A DNA stretch of 22,538 nucleotides from a virus (Duplodnaviria; Heunggongvirae; Uroviricota; Caudoviricetes), in IMG/VR virus record IMGVR_UViG_2667527827_000002. One strand, 5' to 3'. How positions within the stretch are numbered: position 1 is the first letter of the stretch; every line of letters starts with the position of its first letter. Made by a program: the position numbers and the translations under genes. Below the pieces are notes generated by a model. That model saw nothing but the letters and a program-made list of their open reading frames with translations, did not search any database and was not told where the DNA came from. Positions 9,538 to 15,138 of this stretch are shown piece by piece.

Positions 9538-10347
9538 TCAATGAACGGTATCGAGCAGCTTTAACAGCTCAGGGAATCGGGATTCGAAGAAATGCGGCTG
9601 CGTCTCACGCGGATTTGCGGGACTGGTGATGTTCTTGCCGAACATGCAGCCTTTCGCCGTCAGCGACCAGAATTTTTTGATGTTGTTAATCCCGGTACGG
9701 CTGTATCGTTCGCGCTGCTCGACGATCCCCAGCTTCACCATCTGGTGATATGCCTGATTAGCCGTCAGGCGGATACCATACTGCTTCAGCAGTGCACTCA
9801 GCGACAGCGTCGGGCGGCTTGAGCCATCAGGCGCGTCAGCAGGTGCATCAATGGCATAGCGCGGTGCCAGATTCGGTAAGCCAACAGCCTCCTGGAGTTT
9901 CTGACAGGCACCAAGCACTGAAGAGTTAGACAGATTTAACTCCCGGCGCATAAAGTCCAGCAGGATCACGCCAGCCTGCATCTTGTCAGCAGCCTGTCCG
10001 GATAACTTTTCCGGCGCGCTGGTTACCATATCGAAAGTACGGATCACCTTCAGATGGAATGACGGGCTGATCCACATTGCATAGGCATACACCAGTTCCT
10101 TACAGACATACGTTCCCCGTTCATTTCCCCCATGAATCACACTCACCGGGTCAACACCCAAATTCTGGGTGTTGGTTAATTCATGAACAAGCTCAACAGT
10201 TTGTTGGCTGGAAAGAAACTTTCCTGGCTCCTTGGTTCTGGCATTTGCACCAGATGCTACTGCTGCGCGATGCAGATCGTTCAGGCTGTAACGCCCATAA
10301 GCATCACGACGAACTTCAATACCATCAATGACCATCAGATTATTCAT
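9538..10347 (-). CDS. KilA-N domain protein (antirepressor-like)
   Basis: 269 aa. ATG 10345-10347 with AGGAG about 9 nt upstream. N-terminal …MVIDGIEVRRDAYGRYSLNDLHRAA…KEPGKFL… matches the KilA-N DNA-binding domain pattern. Confidence 0.8.
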   Translation of the reverse strand: MNNLMVIDGIEVRRDAYGRYSLNDLHRAAVASGANARTKEPGKFLSSQQTVELVHELTNTQNLGVDPVSVIHGGNERGTYVCKELVYAYAMWISPSFHLKVIRTFDMVTSAPEKLSGQAADKMQAGVILLDFMRRELNLSNSSVLGACQKLQEAVGLPNLAPRYAIDAPADAPDGSSRPTLSLSALLKQYGIRLTANQAYHQMVKLGIVEQRERYSRTGINNIKKFWSLTAKGCMFGKNITSPANPRETQPHFFESRFPELLKLLDTVH

Positions 10348-10366
10348 ACTTCGTTTCTCCTCTTAA

Positions 10367-10756
10367 TCAGGCAGCTGCACCCGCCGTTTTCTCGTACTTA
10401 CTGATAGTGATCTCGACCTTCCCTTCCGGGATAACCGGTCCCCACTCCACCAGCATTCTTTTCACCTGACTGTCGTCTTCCCACACCCCCGCGTGGGTCA
10501 GGGCGTCAAACAGCGCCTTGTTATAGTTGTCCAGATCGCGGATCCTGTTATCCGGAGGAAACAACACGATCTCCACTGAAGCAGGTGCCGACGTTGGTTT
10601 CGGCAGACGACGTAACTGCTCAACTATTGCTGCACACGCCGCGCTCTGGAATTTGCGCCCCGCCGCGCTTATCAGGCTCTTACCTGCAAACGCCACTTTG
10701 TTGGGGTGTCGCCAGTACGTGTTCACGCTGGGCGGAAAAGGCAGTATTAGCTTCAT
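10367..10756 (-). CDS. rusA: Holliday-junction resolvase RusA-like endonuclease
   Basis: 129 aa. MKLILPFPPSVNTYWRH… …DLDNYNKALFDALTHAGVWEDDSQV… are RusA-family hallmarks. The ATG overlaps the upstream stop (ATGA). Confidence 0.85.
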   Translation of the reverse strand: MKLILPFPPSVNTYWRHPNKVAFAGKSLISAAGRKFQSAACAAIVEQLRRLPKPTSAPASVEIVLFPPDNRIRDLDNYNKALFDALTHAGVWEDDSQVKRMLVEWGPVIPEGKVEITISKYEKTAGAAA

Positions 10757-11079
10757 ACTTTCAGGCCCCTCTCATGTAACCAGTGGGCTGCACGCAACCT
10801 GGCGTTCTCCTCACCGGCAAGCAGTGCGCGGATGATACCGACCGCCTCGCTGTCGTCGTCCTTCACCGCGGTATGAAGCGTGATGCCCCGGGCCACGCCA
10901 CGCTTTATCGTGATGACGCCTTTTTTCTCCAGTGCGCGAAGATGCTCCACCGCTGCATTCACTGAACGGTATCCCAGCATGGTTGCCACCTCCTGATTGG
11001 TTGGCGGGAAGCCACGTTCTTTCTGATAAGAAATCAGCATATCCAGCACCTGCTGCTGGCATTGAGTTAACGTCGTCAT
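10753..11079 (-). CDS. LexA N-terminal DNA-binding-domain-like protein (no protease domain)
   Basis: 108 aa. MTTLTQCQQQVLDMLISYQKERGFPPTNQEVATMLGYRSVNAAVEHLRALEKKGVITI… closely parallels the LexA winged-helix N-terminus (…[55 protein letters not shown]…). It lacks the S24 peptidase part. Start and stop overlap neighbours (ATGA). Confidence 0.75.
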   Translation of the reverse strand: MTTLTQCQQQVLDMLISYQKERGFPPTNQEVATMLGYRSVNAAVEHLRALEKKGVITIKRGVARGITLHTAVKDDDSEAVGIIRALLAGEENARLRAAHWLHERGLKV

Positions 11080-11729
11080 GCCGCCATCTCCCTGACCAGT
11101 TTTTCTGCCTGCTGGCGAACCTGCGCCAGAAAGGCCTCACCACATGCCTCAAGTTCATCGCGCCCGATGTAGCTGATTGCCGGTCCCTTCCAGGTCTTGT
11201 CGAAAACAGCAATAGCACCAGCGAAGAAAGCGCCTGTCGGCACCTGCTTCTCATCCTTCGGGATAAACCAGGCAGGCAGTTCAAAACCAATACGCCCGCG
11301 AATAAAAGCAATATGATCTGCATCTTCCGGCCACCACACTTCGCTGGTGGCAGCTTTGATCAGGAAAACATAGCGCCCGCCTTTATCACGCATGGCACTG
11401 GCATGCTTCATGATGTAACGCATGCCGGTGATGTATTGCCCCTCATGCTGACTGGCGCGGCTGTATGGGGGATTACCAAAGGCAGCACCTTTAAGCTCCG
11501 CAAGGCGTTCTGACCAGTCATGCGCCAGCGCGTTGTCTTCCGCCGTGTAATACGCAGCACATTTGGCGTTATCACCGTCAGTGAACAGATCCAGAACAAA
11601 CGGGCCAAACAGGGTGTTAATTCCCCAGAAAATGTTGTCCGGCGTGCGCCACTGATCGCCCACTTCCTTCAGTTCATGGGCTGGTTTGTTCCGCAGTTCC
11701 GCCAGCGCCTGGCAATATTTATTACTCAT
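11076..11729 (-). CDS. Phage Dam-type N6-adenine DNA methyltransferase (NPPY motif)
   Basis: 217 aa from ATG 11727-11729, which shares one base with the upstream TAA. Motif …AFGNPPYSRA… The track's longer version uses a GTG at 11762. Nin-region position is typical for orphan phage Dam. Confidence 0.85.
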   Translation of the reverse strand: MSNKYCQALAELRNKPAHELKEVGDQWRTPDNIFWGINTLFGPFVLDLFTDGDNAKCAAYYTAEDNALAHDWSERLAELKGAAFGNPPYSRASQHEGQYITGMRYIMKHASAMRDKGGRYVFLIKAATSEVWWPEDADHIAFIRGRIGFELPAWFIPKDEKQVPTGAFFAGAIAVFDKTWKGPAISYIGRDELEACGEAFLAQVRQQAEKLVREMAA

Positions 11730-12217
11730 TAAGCCCCCACGTAATTCCCTGAGAGATACCACTCTTCACCTGATGCAGCCCGCTTACTGCTTTTCCGTAA
11801 ACACCGTTCACGACGCGCCAGAAAATTGTTTCGTTCTGGCTGGGAGTGGCTTTCACGGAATGCCGCCATCCACACCGTTGCAGCACGACGGTATAAGCCC
11901 CTCGACTCCAGTTCTTCAGCCTGGCGGGTCAGGCACAAAATCACCCGGGGGTCGTTAGTGCCGACATAGAACTTGCGCACAGGTCTGGTTTCACGAACTG
12001 GTTGTGGTTCCGGCTCCTGCGCTCTCTCAGTCAGGCGCGAGAAATGTCTGCGTGTATCTCCTTCACAACGGTGAGCCACACGCCCACTCTGACGTAACTT
12101 GCTTGCTGACTGCAGAACGCGCTGCCGTGAGTAACCTGCAAAAGCATCCGCAATGTCTCCGGAAGTACAGCCCGGATGGGCTTCAATGAATTTCTGAACT
12201 TCATTCAAAATACTCAT
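11729..12217 (-). CDS. PerC-family-like phage protein (YfdN-like size), N-terminal wHTH-like extension
   Basis: 162 aa from ATG 12215-12217 (GGGGGTGA just upstream). C-terminal …LESRGLYRRAATVWMAAFRES…ERNNFLARRERCLRKS… resembles the PerC/Pch motif pattern as I recall it. Confidence 0.6.
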   Translation of the reverse strand: MSILNEVQKFIEAHPGCTSGDIADAFAGYSRQRVLQSASKLRQSGRVAHRCEGDTRRHFSRLTERAQEPEPQPVRETRPVRKFYVGTNDPRVILCLTRQAEELESRGLYRRAATVWMAAFRESHSQPERNNFLARRERCLRKSSKRAASGEEWYLSGNYVGA

Positions 12218-12219
12218 GC

Positions 12220-13212
12220 TCACCCCCTGAATCCTGCCGGGATCTGGCTGTAGTCCACGTTGTCGTAACTGGATTTGAAATATGGGTCTTCGCGTTTTTC
12301 TGTGTATGTGCTGACGGACGGCGATAAGCGCAGGGAAAGCTCATCCCATTTTTCCCGCAGCTTCGACGGGCTGAGCACGTTACGGCACCAGAACGGATCG
12401 CGGCTGACGCGGCTGTACATCTCGCAGATTTGTTTGTGAGTACGACCATCCTGCACACACATCAGGCGAATTTCGTTTGCCCAGGCTGTCCAGTTCGGTT
12501 CTTTGGGACGAACCACCTCGCCGTCACATTCGGCGGCCTGCTCGTACAGGGCGATGATTTTTTTCCAGAGCCACTGTGCGCAGGTCAAATCATCCTGCGT
12601 TCCCCACTGGCGCTTTTTAGGGCTGAATACAACCGCATCAGGATGGCGAGTTAAAAACTCCTGTTCAGCCGTTTGCGTGTCCGGTTGCGAAGCGTCCGGA
12701 CGAGAAGAGGTTTTATTCTCTGTAGTAATCTCTGTTGTATTCTCTGTAAGATCATTGGGCCATTTTGACCCGATGACAGCGTGTCGTTTTGAACCAATGG
12801 ATCGTGTCATTTTGCGCCCATCCATCAGGTCACTTTGACCCGATGGAGAAGTGCATTTTGACCTGATGGATTCGTTCACTTTGACCTCTTCTAAAAGCTC
12901 ACTTTCATAGTTGATCGTGTAGAAGTTGGTCATGTCACGCTTCGATTTATTGAGTTGCTCGCGACGCAAAACCCCAAGTGATTTCAGGCTTGCAAATGTG
13001 CGTTTCAGAGTGGACTCTGACCAGAACGGAAACTGCTCCAGCCACTGTTCTGTCGTGTTATAAACCCAGCGAATTCCGCCATGCTCAGTGCCTGAATTCG
13101 TTTCATTCAGCCAGTAATGAAGCTGCTGCAACACAATTGCCTCATTCAGACCAATACGGCATGCAAGATCACGATTTATCACAATGGGCTGGGATGTCAT
13201 TAACAGGCTCAT
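12220..13212 (-). CDS. Phage replication initiation protein (lambda O-like, iteron-binding), ori embedded in the gene
   Basis: 330 aa. ATG 13210-13212 overlaps the upstream stop (ATGA). Six 23-bp-spaced direct repeats lie inside the coding sequence and encode a repetitive linker (…SIGSKRHAVIGSKW…), as in lambda O. Confidence 0.75.
   Translation of the reverse strand: MSLLMTSQPIVINRDLACRIGLNEAIVLQQLHYWLNETNSGTEHGGIRWVYNTTEQWLEQFPFWSESTLKRTFASLKSLGVLRREQLNKSKRDMTNFYTINYESELLEEVKVNESIRSKCTSPSGQSDLMDGRKMTRSIGSKRHAVIGSKWPNDLTENTTEITTENKTSSRPDASQPDTQTAEQEFLTRHPDAVVFSPKKRQWGTQDDLTCAQWLWKKIIALYEQAAECDGEVVRPKEPNWTAWANEIRLMCVQDGRTHKQICEMYSRVSRDPFWCRNVLSPSKLREKWDELSLRLSPSVSTYTEKREDPYFKSSYDNVDYSQIPAGFRG
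12761..12888. repeat. Iteron array (six direct repeats, consensus about CAYTTTGACCYGATGG, 23-bp period): putative phage origin of replication
   Basis: Copies begin at about 12761, 12785, 12808, 12831, 12854 and 12877. An adjacent relatively AT-rich stretch with three tctctgt repeats (about 12700-12755) lies on the downstream side relative to the O-like gene. Confidence 0.75.
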
Positions 13213-13433
13213 GCCGCACCTCCGAGATGCTTCATGTTTTTTCCGGAGCGAAAGGCTATAAGCGGCATACTGACGCGGTAATTACGGCCCAGCGGTTCAC
13301 AAATCACCTTCTGACATTCACGGTCAACCAGGCTAACACGTAGAACATGCCCTGCAGGCGTGGTGTACCACTGACCGGGGCGAGGACAACGGAAAGTCTG
13401 ATTGGTAAATCGTTTGAAAATATTCCGGATCAT
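13209..13433 (-). CDS. Hypothetical small phage protein (74 aa)
   Basis: ORF with ATG 13431-13433 overlapping the Rha stop (ATGA), and its own stop overlapping the O-like start (ATGA). No recognisable domain; supported mainly by coupling and operon context. Confidence 0.5.
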   Translation of the reverse strand: MIRNIFKRFTNQTFRCPRPGQWYTTPAGHVLRVSLVDRECQKVICEPLGRNYRVSMPLIAFRSGKNMKHLGGAA

Positions 13434-14578
13434 TTGCGCCCCCTTACCTCTGAAGAGTTCAGCGACGAATGAATAAGACGGGCAAGAAATGCCGCATCGT
13501 TAATTCGGTCATACAGACTTACAGCCAGAGGTGATTCAGCTTTTTCCAGCATGGGATAAAGCTGCTGCAACCAGACCTGATGAATTGATGAAATGTAGGA
13601 ATAGAGAACGCTGGCGTTATGTGCAACGTCGCTCGGTACAGCGGGCTTTGAAAGCTGTTTCTCCATCTGGTTAAAGGCATTGATGTATGCCTCTTTGAAC
13701 TGGGCAGCACGTTTACCCGTGAAACCCATAGCAAGAAACGCAAAGCCGTCGCGGGTTATTTGATAGCAAGGTAGTTTGCGGCCTGTGCAATCGGTGTAAT
13801 CACTCACCGAAAAATTGCGGGCAGTGAATGATGCGGAACATTCAAGCGTGCGGATCTTTTTCAGTACATCGTCATGACGTTTGGAGAAGAAGTTGGCAAC
13901 AGCCAGGGATGAAGTAACAGCCTGACCATCAACGATGGCAATTTCAGGTTGAGTGAGGGTTGGGATCGTAGCCATGATGGCAGTCTCCGATAACAGTGAA
14001 TTACCTTCACCACCGGAAACGCCAATTTCGCTGGTGGTGAACTGAACGGGGTTGGCGTAACCGGCGTTATCGGAAACCGGCGCACCTTTCGGTGCCCCCG
14101 TCCAGCCCACCATAATTTGGGTGTGCACAGACGCAGACGATAAAAAAGACGCTGGCGCGTCATATATCGCCGATAACATTTCCAGGACGCCAATCCCGAC
14201 ACCCGCTTTATAAGGTGCCTGAACAGTGTAACGTCCCGGAATGGCAGAATCAATGTGCTGGTGGTCCTTCACACTCAACAAAATCACGCCTGAATTTCCA
14301 CAAAGGACTAAAGCACTCATGCGGGTAGTCTTTGCGAAGATAGATAACGCGCTGTGTTTCTGGCTCCCAACGAATAACATGGACATAAAGCCCTCTTCCG
14401 TCACGAAACCAGCGGTTAAGTTCCTGCACAACTCGCCCCCCACAGTCAGGTAAAGTTCTCTGTGGTTACTTACAGCCAGGTGATTTGGTAATCTGCATTC
14501 ATGCCGTAACAACAGGTGTTCAGCGACGCTGACCACCAGCTGTTGCGACAAACGGTTATTTGCCGTTAAACTGTTCAT
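13430..14578 (-). CDS. Rha-family phage regulatory protein with an unusual ~200-aa N-terminal extension (alternative: Rha alone from internal ATG 13975)
   Basis: 382-aa open frame. ATG 14576-14578 overlaps the stop of the upstream CII-position gene (ATGA). The Rha/ORF6N-like domain (…AIVDGQAVTSSLAVANFFSKRHDDVLKKIRTLE…CYQITRDGFAFLAMGFTGKRAAQFKEAYINAFNQMEKQL…) occupies residues about 205-305. An internal ATG at 13973-13975 has GGAG 9 nt upstream. Confidence 0.7.
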   Translation of the reverse strand: MNSLTANNRLSQQLVVSVAEHLLLRHECRLPNHLAVSNHRELYLTVGGELCRNLTAGFVTEEGFMSMLFVGSQKHSALSIFAKTTRMSALVLCGNSGVILLSVKDHQHIDSAIPGRYTVQAPYKAGVGIGVLEMLSAIYDAPASFLSSASVHTQIMVGWTGAPKGAPVSDNAGYANPVQFTTSEIGVSGGEGNSLLSETAIMATIPTLTQPEIAIVDGQAVTSSLAVANFFSKRHDDVLKKIRTLECSASFTARNFSVSDYTDCTGRKLPCYQITRDGFAFLAMGFTGKRAAQFKEAYINAFNQMEKQLSKPAVPSDVAHNASVLYSYISSIHQVWLQQLYPMLEKAESPLAVSLYDRINDAAFLARLIHSSLNSSEVRGRK

Positions 14579-15138
14579 GCGTTAGTTTCTCCACAGACAC
14601 AAAACGCCACGACGCCCGGAGCTGCACACTCGCGGGCGTCACTCTTTTCTGGAGCGCAAAAGATTTTGTAGACCAGTGCTGCATGCTCCTGGAGCTTCGA
14701 AATTGACAGATACAACTCATCATTAATTGCTGTCTGCTCGTGTGGCTCCACTACCCCATCTTCGATTGCCGAACGAATCTGCTTTGAGTAACTCCCGATC
14801 TGTTCGATGACTTCCAGCAGGCGCTGGTTTATATCGGCGTTCTCTACTTCCTCAAGTTCAGGAAGCGATACAAACACCCCACCAGCAGACTGTGCGACAG
14901 CATCCGCAATGTAGTGAGTGCCAGCCGCGCGCTGTAAAATCATTGCCCATCCCAGCGGGAAAATCTGATCGCCATCTGCACGAAGGCGGTTGAATAAAGC
15001 GTTCTCTGTTACATCCAGCCACTCAGCAGCTTCAGCGTAACCTCCCGGCAACGCCGCGATAGTTTTTCTGACAGCTTTCACGTACCACTCAGGCTGTTTT
15101 TCTACTTTCCAGTGATGCTTACCCACGGTTAGCCTCAT
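14575..15138 (-). CDS. Phage regulatory protein in the CII position (possibly YdaT/CII-like family)
   Basis: 187-aa ORF directly downstream of the Cro-like gene. ATG 15136-15138 has no obvious SD. The family assignment is tentative, based on position and size only. Confidence 0.6.
   Translation of the reverse strand: MRLTVGKHHWKVEKQPEWYVKAVRKTIAALPGGYAEAAEWLDVTENALFNRLRADGDQIFPLGWAMILQRAAGTHYIADAVAQSAGGVFVSLPELEEVENADINQRLLEVIEQIGSYSKQIRSAIEDGVVEPHEQTAINDELYLSISKLQEHAALVYKIFCAPEKSDARECAAPGVVAFCVCGETNA

Follow-up and report, generated by a model that had tools for sequence, protein, structure and literature searches.

The window analysed here is a stretch of 22,538 nucleotides from a virus assigned to the Caudoviricetes (IMG/VR record IMGVR_UViG_2667527827_000002), and the subject of this report is a replication initiator gene that it carries (12220..13212, minus strand; 330 residues), together with a tract of repeated DNA lying inside that gene. 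The product of this open reading frame (ORF) matches PHROG 391, "replication initiation O-like" (E 1e-101), and is divided by an AlphaFold2 model into a folded N-terminal part (residues 1-100), a disordered linker (109-177), a helical C-terminal domain (178-298) and a disordered tail. These parts correspond to an N-terminal winged helix presumed to bind the repeats (codons 1-105; 12898..13212, minus strand), a helical domain of the type found at the C-terminus of lambda O (codons 190-298; 12319..12645, minus strand) and a tail in which the predicted local distance difference test score falls below 50 (codons 299-330; 12223..12318, minus strand). The last nine residues of that tail, SQIPAGFRG, are encoded at 12223-12249 and give their name to what we call GFRG-tailed initiators below.

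Within this gene the original prediction had placed six direct repeats at 23-bp spacing, next to an AT-richer segment with three copies of tctctgt, in the arrangement of lambda O and its origin, and each of these elements was recovered by our analysis. Six iterons of about 23 bp were returned by the repeat search, at 12753-12775, 12777-12799, 12800-12822, 12823-12845, 12846-12868 and 12869-12891, with start-to-start spacings of 24, 23, 23, 23 and 23 bp. They share the core CAYTTTGACC and read on the coding strand as CATCrGGTCAAAATGrCCCrATG, copies 3 and 6 being more degenerate. When a 17-nt iteron consensus was sought with up to three mismatches, the 22.5-kb window gave five matches, every one of them between 12759 and 12868; shuffled sequence would be expected to give 0.18, and none of 100 shuffles gave five. 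Several iterons are, by eye, imperfect palindromes (for example CATTGGGCC-ATTTT-GACCCGATG), and a perfect 13-nt inverted repeat lies between copies 4 and 5. A period of 23 bp cannot be divided by three and thus runs out of codon frame, so that a peptide repeat in the encoded protein does not account for the array.

The iterons are directly followed, as the gene is read, by an AT-rich block (12714..12749) made up of three 12-bp repeats (TAtTCTCTGTag), which is the stretch of lowest guanine-plus-cytosine (GC) content within the initiator gene (0.34) and is presumed to be a DNA-unwinding element. Its TCTCTGT repeats fall at 12716-12723, 12728-12735 and 12740-12747, with a period of 12; the heptamer by itself is not rare in the window, and it is the tandem 12-bp arrangement that stands out. 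Iterons and block together occupy codons 108-167 (the iterons alone, 108-153), within the linker that is predicted to be disordered. No DnaA box with one mismatch or fewer was found in 10077-14586, and hence none within about 1 kb of the repeats, and DnaA-dependent loading was rejected on this ground.

The C-terminal half of the initiator places it close to lambda O. Residues 147-294 align with residues 135-270 of lambda O at 33% identity (BLASTP, E 1e-26), lambda O was among the phmmer matches of the C-terminal domain, and the family built on that domain comprises 2637 representatives at 50% clustering, lambda O among them. The N-terminal part is of another kind. Phage_rep_O (PF04492) was absent from it in a Pfam scan extended to an E value of 5, whereas lambda O gave 5.7e-36 in the same scan, and its fold resembles winged helices of the RepA_N and DnaD-NTD-like type, including the RepA_N initiator 4pta. 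Searches of Pfam, NCBIfam and PDB sequences with the initiator gave no usable match. Judged from sequence and predicted fold, this is an O-family protein by virtue of its C-terminal half, with an N-terminal winged helix that is not of the lambda O type. Such proteins are abundant: of 5426 complete E. coli genomes, 3572 contain this initiator or its C-terminal module (1715 of them at a coverage of 80% or more), and its RefSeq name there, from the Prokaryotic Genome Annotation Pipeline, is "hypothetical protein".

Comparison of related loci reveals a consistent pairing between N-domains and repeats. At least five types of N-domain occur, and with each of them comes a distinct repeat array, always at the one position in the gene and spaced at 15, 22 or 23 bp. 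In SfII, SfIV, mEp460, Lys8385Vzw and two further loci (L082 and L136) the C-terminal part of the gene is 96-98% identical in DNA to the window and the N-domains differ; at the position of the iterons, SfII and SfIV have 15-bp GATTTTGACGGGTCA units, mEp460 and Lys8385Vzw have GTGAATCTCCTGCAC-type units, L082 has GGGAAACCC units at 23 bp and L136 has CGCAGAAnnGCG units at 22 bp. Homologues with an N-domain of the window type retain GGTCAAAATG iterons across three genera, at 23-bp spacing in Citrobacter (L008, 74% amino acid identity) and in E. albertii (L010, 71%), and more distant homologues (L139 and L141) display a GGTCAAATTG variant. In the complete phage mEp460_4F5 the initiator is 99% identical to that of the window and the iterons are identical. 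The AT-rich block travels with the C-terminal module even where N-domain and iterons differ, as in L082; megablast identity to SfII-type phages breaks at about 12722, and the nucleotide identity of the block is 98-100% in diverged homologues.

A further indication comes from the manner in which these codons diverge. When the window is compared with L008 or L010, amino acid identity over the iteron codons (0.61-0.70) is below that of the folded domains (0.71-0.81). Identity at third codon positions, counted at identical residues in the same two comparisons, is 0.86-0.91 in the iteron codons and 1.00 in the AT-rich block, versus 0.54-0.65 in the folded domains. Such a pattern points to selection acting on the DNA sequence of this region, beyond the protein that it encodes. 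By its position, by the covariation of repeats with N-domains and by this DNA-level constraint, we interpret 12714-12891 as a putative lambda-type origin residing within the initiator gene.

The original prediction also held that the gene downstream of the initiator is neither P-like nor DnaC-like, and that the replication module contains no recognisable helicase loader; both statements agree with the profile searches. The downstream gene (11729..12223, minus strand) is PerC/YfdN-like, with a probable N-terminal winged helix-turn-helix (Pfam PerC, E 7e-9; PHROG 1324, "transcriptional activator"), and none of the profiles used gave it a helicase-loader match. It occupies the position of lambda ren, and the N-terminal part of its product has a weak match to PHROG 142, "Ren-like exclusion protein" (E 1e-3). 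Among the substantial ORFs of the window, scanned with Pfam and in ten cases also with PHROGs, there was no DnaC/IstB, lambda P (PF06992), DnaB or primase; the families represented include Rha/Ash, CII, Cro, CI, Dam, a LexA DNA-binding domain, RusA, KilA-N, DUF968/HNH, Q, YfdQ, YfdR and an exonuclease. Likewise, phmmer searches of both strands with DnaC, DnaC-like, P and DnaB references disclosed no P-, DnaC- or DnaB-like gene either in the window or in the neighbourhood of 115 similar modules, and no helicase or loader is annotated in the complete 42.9-kb genome of mEp460_4F5. The genes that follow GFRG-tailed initiators differ by lineage (PerC-like, DUF1627, DUF977, ParB-HTH, methyltransferases), so that no conserved, unrecognised partner is evident; the PerC-like gene is itself missing from several of these modules and is therefore not an obligatory partner.

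The C-terminal tail of the initiator, on which the original prediction was silent, offers a possible answer to how a helicase might be obtained. Annotations of "primosomal protein I" among relatives pointed to DnaT, and the terminal SQIPAGFRG of the initiator is identical at eight of nine positions to the SQIPPGFRG that ends E. coli DnaT (residues 171-179), the motif standing in both proteins at the extreme C-terminus of a flexible tail. In 17 enterobacterial DnaT sequences, I173, P174, G176, F177, R178 and G179 are invariant, and the last 24 residues of the initiator, REDPYFKxSYDNVDYSQIPAGFRG, are identical in three initiator types that elsewhere fall to as little as 26% identity. The last 20 or so residues of DnaT are highly flexible by nuclear magnetic resonance (reviewed in PMC5778457). 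Profile-profile comparison (hhalign) of the initiator and DnaT families aligns the tail only, which argues for a shared short linear motif rather than domain homology, and the three-helix DNA-binding domain at the C-terminus of DnaT (PF17948) found no match in the initiator. DnaT, unlike the initiator, has no sequence-specific DNA-binding domain and works at forks with PriA and PriB. All GFRG-tailed representatives that bear an organism name are from Enterobacteriaceae.

The distribution of tails was then set against that of loader genes in a census of 237 non-identical loci with lambda-O-type C-domains, drawn from IMG/VR and from assemblies. Initiator ORFs were located with a hidden Markov model of the C-domain, and neighbouring ORFs on both strands were classed by phmmer against E. 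coli DnaC, a phage DnaC-like protein, four P-like proteins and DnaB; the loci form 23 clusters at 80% identity, of which 11 have Trp-rich tails, 4 long DnaT-like tails and 8 short GFRG tails. Trp-rich tails (..LDWDNTDWA.., ..HWNxxEAWENTL) have a P-like gene downstream in every one of their 60 loci, and lambda O itself (L188, 387-1286) belongs to this class, ending in LDLTNTDWIYGVDL where the initiator of the window ends in DYSQIPAGFRG. Long DnaT-like tails (20 residues, e.g. GRDINQISRPDNTVPPGFRG) precede a DnaC-like gene in 60 of 61 loci, 6 nt past the stop codon, the encoded protein being 48% identical to host DnaC. Short GFRG tails of the window type have no loader within 3-4 kb in 115 of 116 loci, and the sole exception, L010, has a tail of the long type. 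No cross combination of tail class and loader class occurs among the 237 loci. N-domain types assort independently of tails, and in several pairs the C-domains resemble each other right up to the start of the tail and no further (the match between L149 and P0427, for example, covers only residues 29-160 of 179).

We had first supposed the GFRG tail to be peculiar to modules without a loader; L010 and the 60 loci with DnaC-like genes refuted this and led to the revised view that the tail accompanies DnaC-type loaders, whether of phage or of host. The census also suggests, from association at the sequence level, that the Trp-rich tail of lambda O may be part of the O-P contact. Two irregularities were noted in passing. 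In L339-L343 (about 4445-6466) a long DnaT-like tail is followed by a 70-residue ORF and a 518-residue ORF in place of the DnaC-like gene, which has possibly been disrupted. In addition, one protein cluster at 90% identity (P0250) holds both 323-residue initiators and 246-residue DnaC-like proteins, a mixture which suggests that initiator and DnaC have become one ORF in some assemblies, by fusion or read-through.

Taken together, we think it probable that the tract and the gene serve a lambdoid prophage of the SfV/SfII/mEp460/CPS-53 type as origin and initiator, and that the C-terminal domain and tail of the initiator would recruit host DnaB-DnaC with no loader supplied by the phage. Dimers of the initiator would use the N-terminal winged helix to bind the six 23-bp iterons, as its fold and the covariation of iterons with N-domains suggest, and by analogy with ori-lambda the resulting nucleoprotein complex would open the adjoining block of three 12-bp repeats (34% GC). 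The phage would provide neither helicase nor loader, in keeping with the gene content of the window and with the annotation of one complete relative. The C-terminal domain and IPAGFRG tail might then replace the O-P contact and bring host DnaB-DnaC to the opened DNA, a step proposed from co-occurrence only. Since the motif ends both the host adaptor DnaT and phage initiators standing directly upstream of DnaC-like genes, we infer that the tail recruits loaders of the DnaC type; of the two sources of loading that the original prediction had left open, host DnaC or an unrecognised factor, the DnaT-like tail and its co-occurrence with loaders favour the former.

Several considerations weigh against this proposal. 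The helical C-domain of the initiator has no detectable homology to the C-terminal domain of DnaT, and in DnaT it is the N-terminal domain, not the tail, that has been suggested as a possible contact for DnaB or DnaC (PMC13377028), the tail being credited with a modest part in cooperative binding of single-stranded DNA (PMC4132743). The tail adjoins the next gene, so that linkage within mosaic modules contributes to the association between tail and loader, and the census loci came from a few seeded searches and are phylogenetically clumped. Finally, the prophage of the window is possibly a truncated remnant, and this particular copy may be inactive. A separate explanation is that the repeats are no working origin at all but relics, or merely the coding sequence of a flexible linker in a defective prophage. 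The apparently non-phage genes lying beyond the methyltransferase, where relatives carry lysis genes, and the lack of DnaA boxes or other host-factor sites nearby are in accord with that notion. It is nonetheless very unlikely, given that the 23-bp period is out of codon frame, that synonymous sites are strongly conserved and the repeats covary with the N-domain in contradiction of a relic, and that a complete phage genome, mEp460_4F5, has a nearly identical initiator with identical repeats.

Two other explanations accept the origin and initiator as described and differ in how the helicase is loaded. In one, the tail links the initiator to the PriA-PriB restart machinery as an origin-tethered surrogate of DnaT, loading being dependent on PriA. 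DnaT does act in the cell with PriA and PriB, docking PriA by a conserved hydrophobic interface of its C-terminal domain and PriB by its linker (PMC13377028), and the terminal motif is common to DnaT and the initiator. The parts of DnaT that make those contacts (the core of the C-terminal domain and the acidic linker), however, have no detectable counterpart in the initiator, and neither a PriA/PriB role nor one in binding single-stranded DNA gives a reason for the exclusion of the tail from P-like genes and its coupling to DnaC-like genes; we regard this explanation as unlikely. In the other, a phage loader has escaped recognition, whether the PerC/YfdN-like protein, the product of a 74-residue DUF4222 ORF upstream, or the C-domain of the initiator itself acting as a loader of the DnaD/G39P type, and the shared tail serves something else. 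This too seems improbable, as GFRG-tailed modules have no downstream gene in common, the PerC-like protein matches families of transcription regulators only, and lambda O has the same C-domain yet needs P.

Relative to lambda, the likeness resides in an origin within the initiator gene, in an AT-rich block that comes after the iterons as the gene is read, in a homologous C-domain, and in an N-domain and iterons that form a specificity module recombining as a unit. The lambda origin has four iterons of about 18 bp as opposed to six of 23 bp in the window, and lambda has a P gene and a Phage_rep_O N-domain, neither of which is matched here, the next gene being PerC-like. Iteron plasmids offer another parallel, in that the winged-helix initiators of pSC101 (RepA), R6K (pi) and RK2 (TrfA) recruit host DnaB-DnaC without a loader encoded by the replicon; these usually use DnaA boxes at the origin as well, which are wanting near the repeats of the window, and their initiators lack both the lambda-O-type C-domain and the GFRG tail. 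The nearest published item to a DnaT-like tail on an O-type initiator is DopC of Alteromonadales and related bacteria, which combines an O-like N-terminal helix-turn-helix with a C-terminal piece related to DnaT (PMC5509034). DopC differs in being a domesticated chromosomal gene without iterons, partnered by the P-like DopE, where the window has no P-like partner; its similarity to DnaT lies, according to that paper, in the fold of the C-terminal domain (2ru8), whereas the initiator of the window shares the tail only.

The type of module itself is already known and has been catalogued descriptively, another point, along with its very common occurrence, on which the original prediction had nothing to say. 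The order of a Rha gene or small ORF, the initiator, a PerC/YfdN-like gene, Dam, the LexA DNA-binding domain, RusA, KilA-N and DUF968 recurs in SfV, SfII, SfIV and mEp460, in CPS-53 and in the "Eru6" class of Shiga toxin (Stx) phages. Their DNA is 96-98% identical to the window from the AT-rich block on; these phages carry other sets of N-domain and iterons, and only mEp460_4F5 shares that of the window. The yfdO-yfdN-yfdM genes of the CPS-53 prophage in E. coli K-12 are a module of this type, with which the annotations of relatives agree. The replication region of "Eru6" Stx phages is described as lacking helicase and primase and as having a Rha-family gene and a helix-turn-helix replication protein upstream of cI (PMC8951638). 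By gene content the window belongs with this class, although the definition of Eru6 rests on protein identity and the assignment here on gene content and DNA match; where the window and the Eru6 reference phage Stx2a_WGPS2 share sequence, they match at 96%. Classes Eru1-3 encode helicases and do not fit the window. In the literature searched we found no description of an origin or iterons for the SfV/SfII/SfIV/mEp460, CPS-53 or "Eru6" regions, nor of a DnaT-like tail on a lambda-O-type initiator or of the correspondence between tail and loader, and a search with the motif string gave nothing relevant.

The remaining genes of the window bear on its general character. The 74-residue ORF (13209..13433, minus strand; PHROG 1153, E 1e-45; DUF4222 in RefSeq) overlaps the start of the initiator gene and is translationally coupled to it; DUF4222 ORFs lie likewise upstream of the initiators in L191 and L193. 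A Rha/Ash gene lies at 13430-14578 of the window, with the initiator as its neighbour. A 108-residue protein (10753-11079, minus strand) consists of a LexA DNA-binding domain with no S24 peptidase domain and is kept in this module across phages. Toward the start of the window (1-6828), past a phage methyltransferase gene (5776-6828), are a BigA-like gene of 1544 residues (1069-5703) and an aldo/keto reductase gene (1-861), in the place where mEp460_4F5 has holin and lysin genes; the window prophage may accordingly be truncated or carry cargo. At the other end, beyond a PrtN/TorI-like gene (20981-21289), a gene with a SocA/Panacea antitoxin domain (21966-22538, minus strand) is accompanied by a small upstream partner ORF (21550-21969, minus strand).

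Viewed more broadly, the tail of O-type initiators may be a swappable address label for loaders, a Trp-rich version directing the protein to P and an IPxGFRG version to loaders of the DnaC type. We advance tentatively the extension of this idea to the host, in which the tail of DnaT would be the same label, and the missing contact by which PriA-PriB-DnaT captures DnaB-DnaC, with the dnaT-dnaC operon descending from a prophage initiator-loader pair. The contact of the preprimosome with DnaB-DnaC is stated as unknown in recent papers (PMC13377028, PMC11087952). In E. coli, dnaT is followed by dnaC after 3 nt (L006, 2239-3518), an arrangement mirrored by the long-tailed phage initiators directly followed, 6 nt on, by a DnaC homologue (L276-L338), which is a hint of a prophage origin for the host operon. 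The module bears on how lambdoid phages replicate without P, DnaC or a helicase of their own; it is very common in E. coli and is found also in the serotype-converting phages of Shigella and in Stx phages. The pattern of tails and loaders would provide a cheap and concrete hypothesis for two problems, namely which part of lambda O addresses P and how DnaT hands DnaB-DnaC to a restarting fork, and it reduces to a peptide of 9-20 residues that is directly testable.
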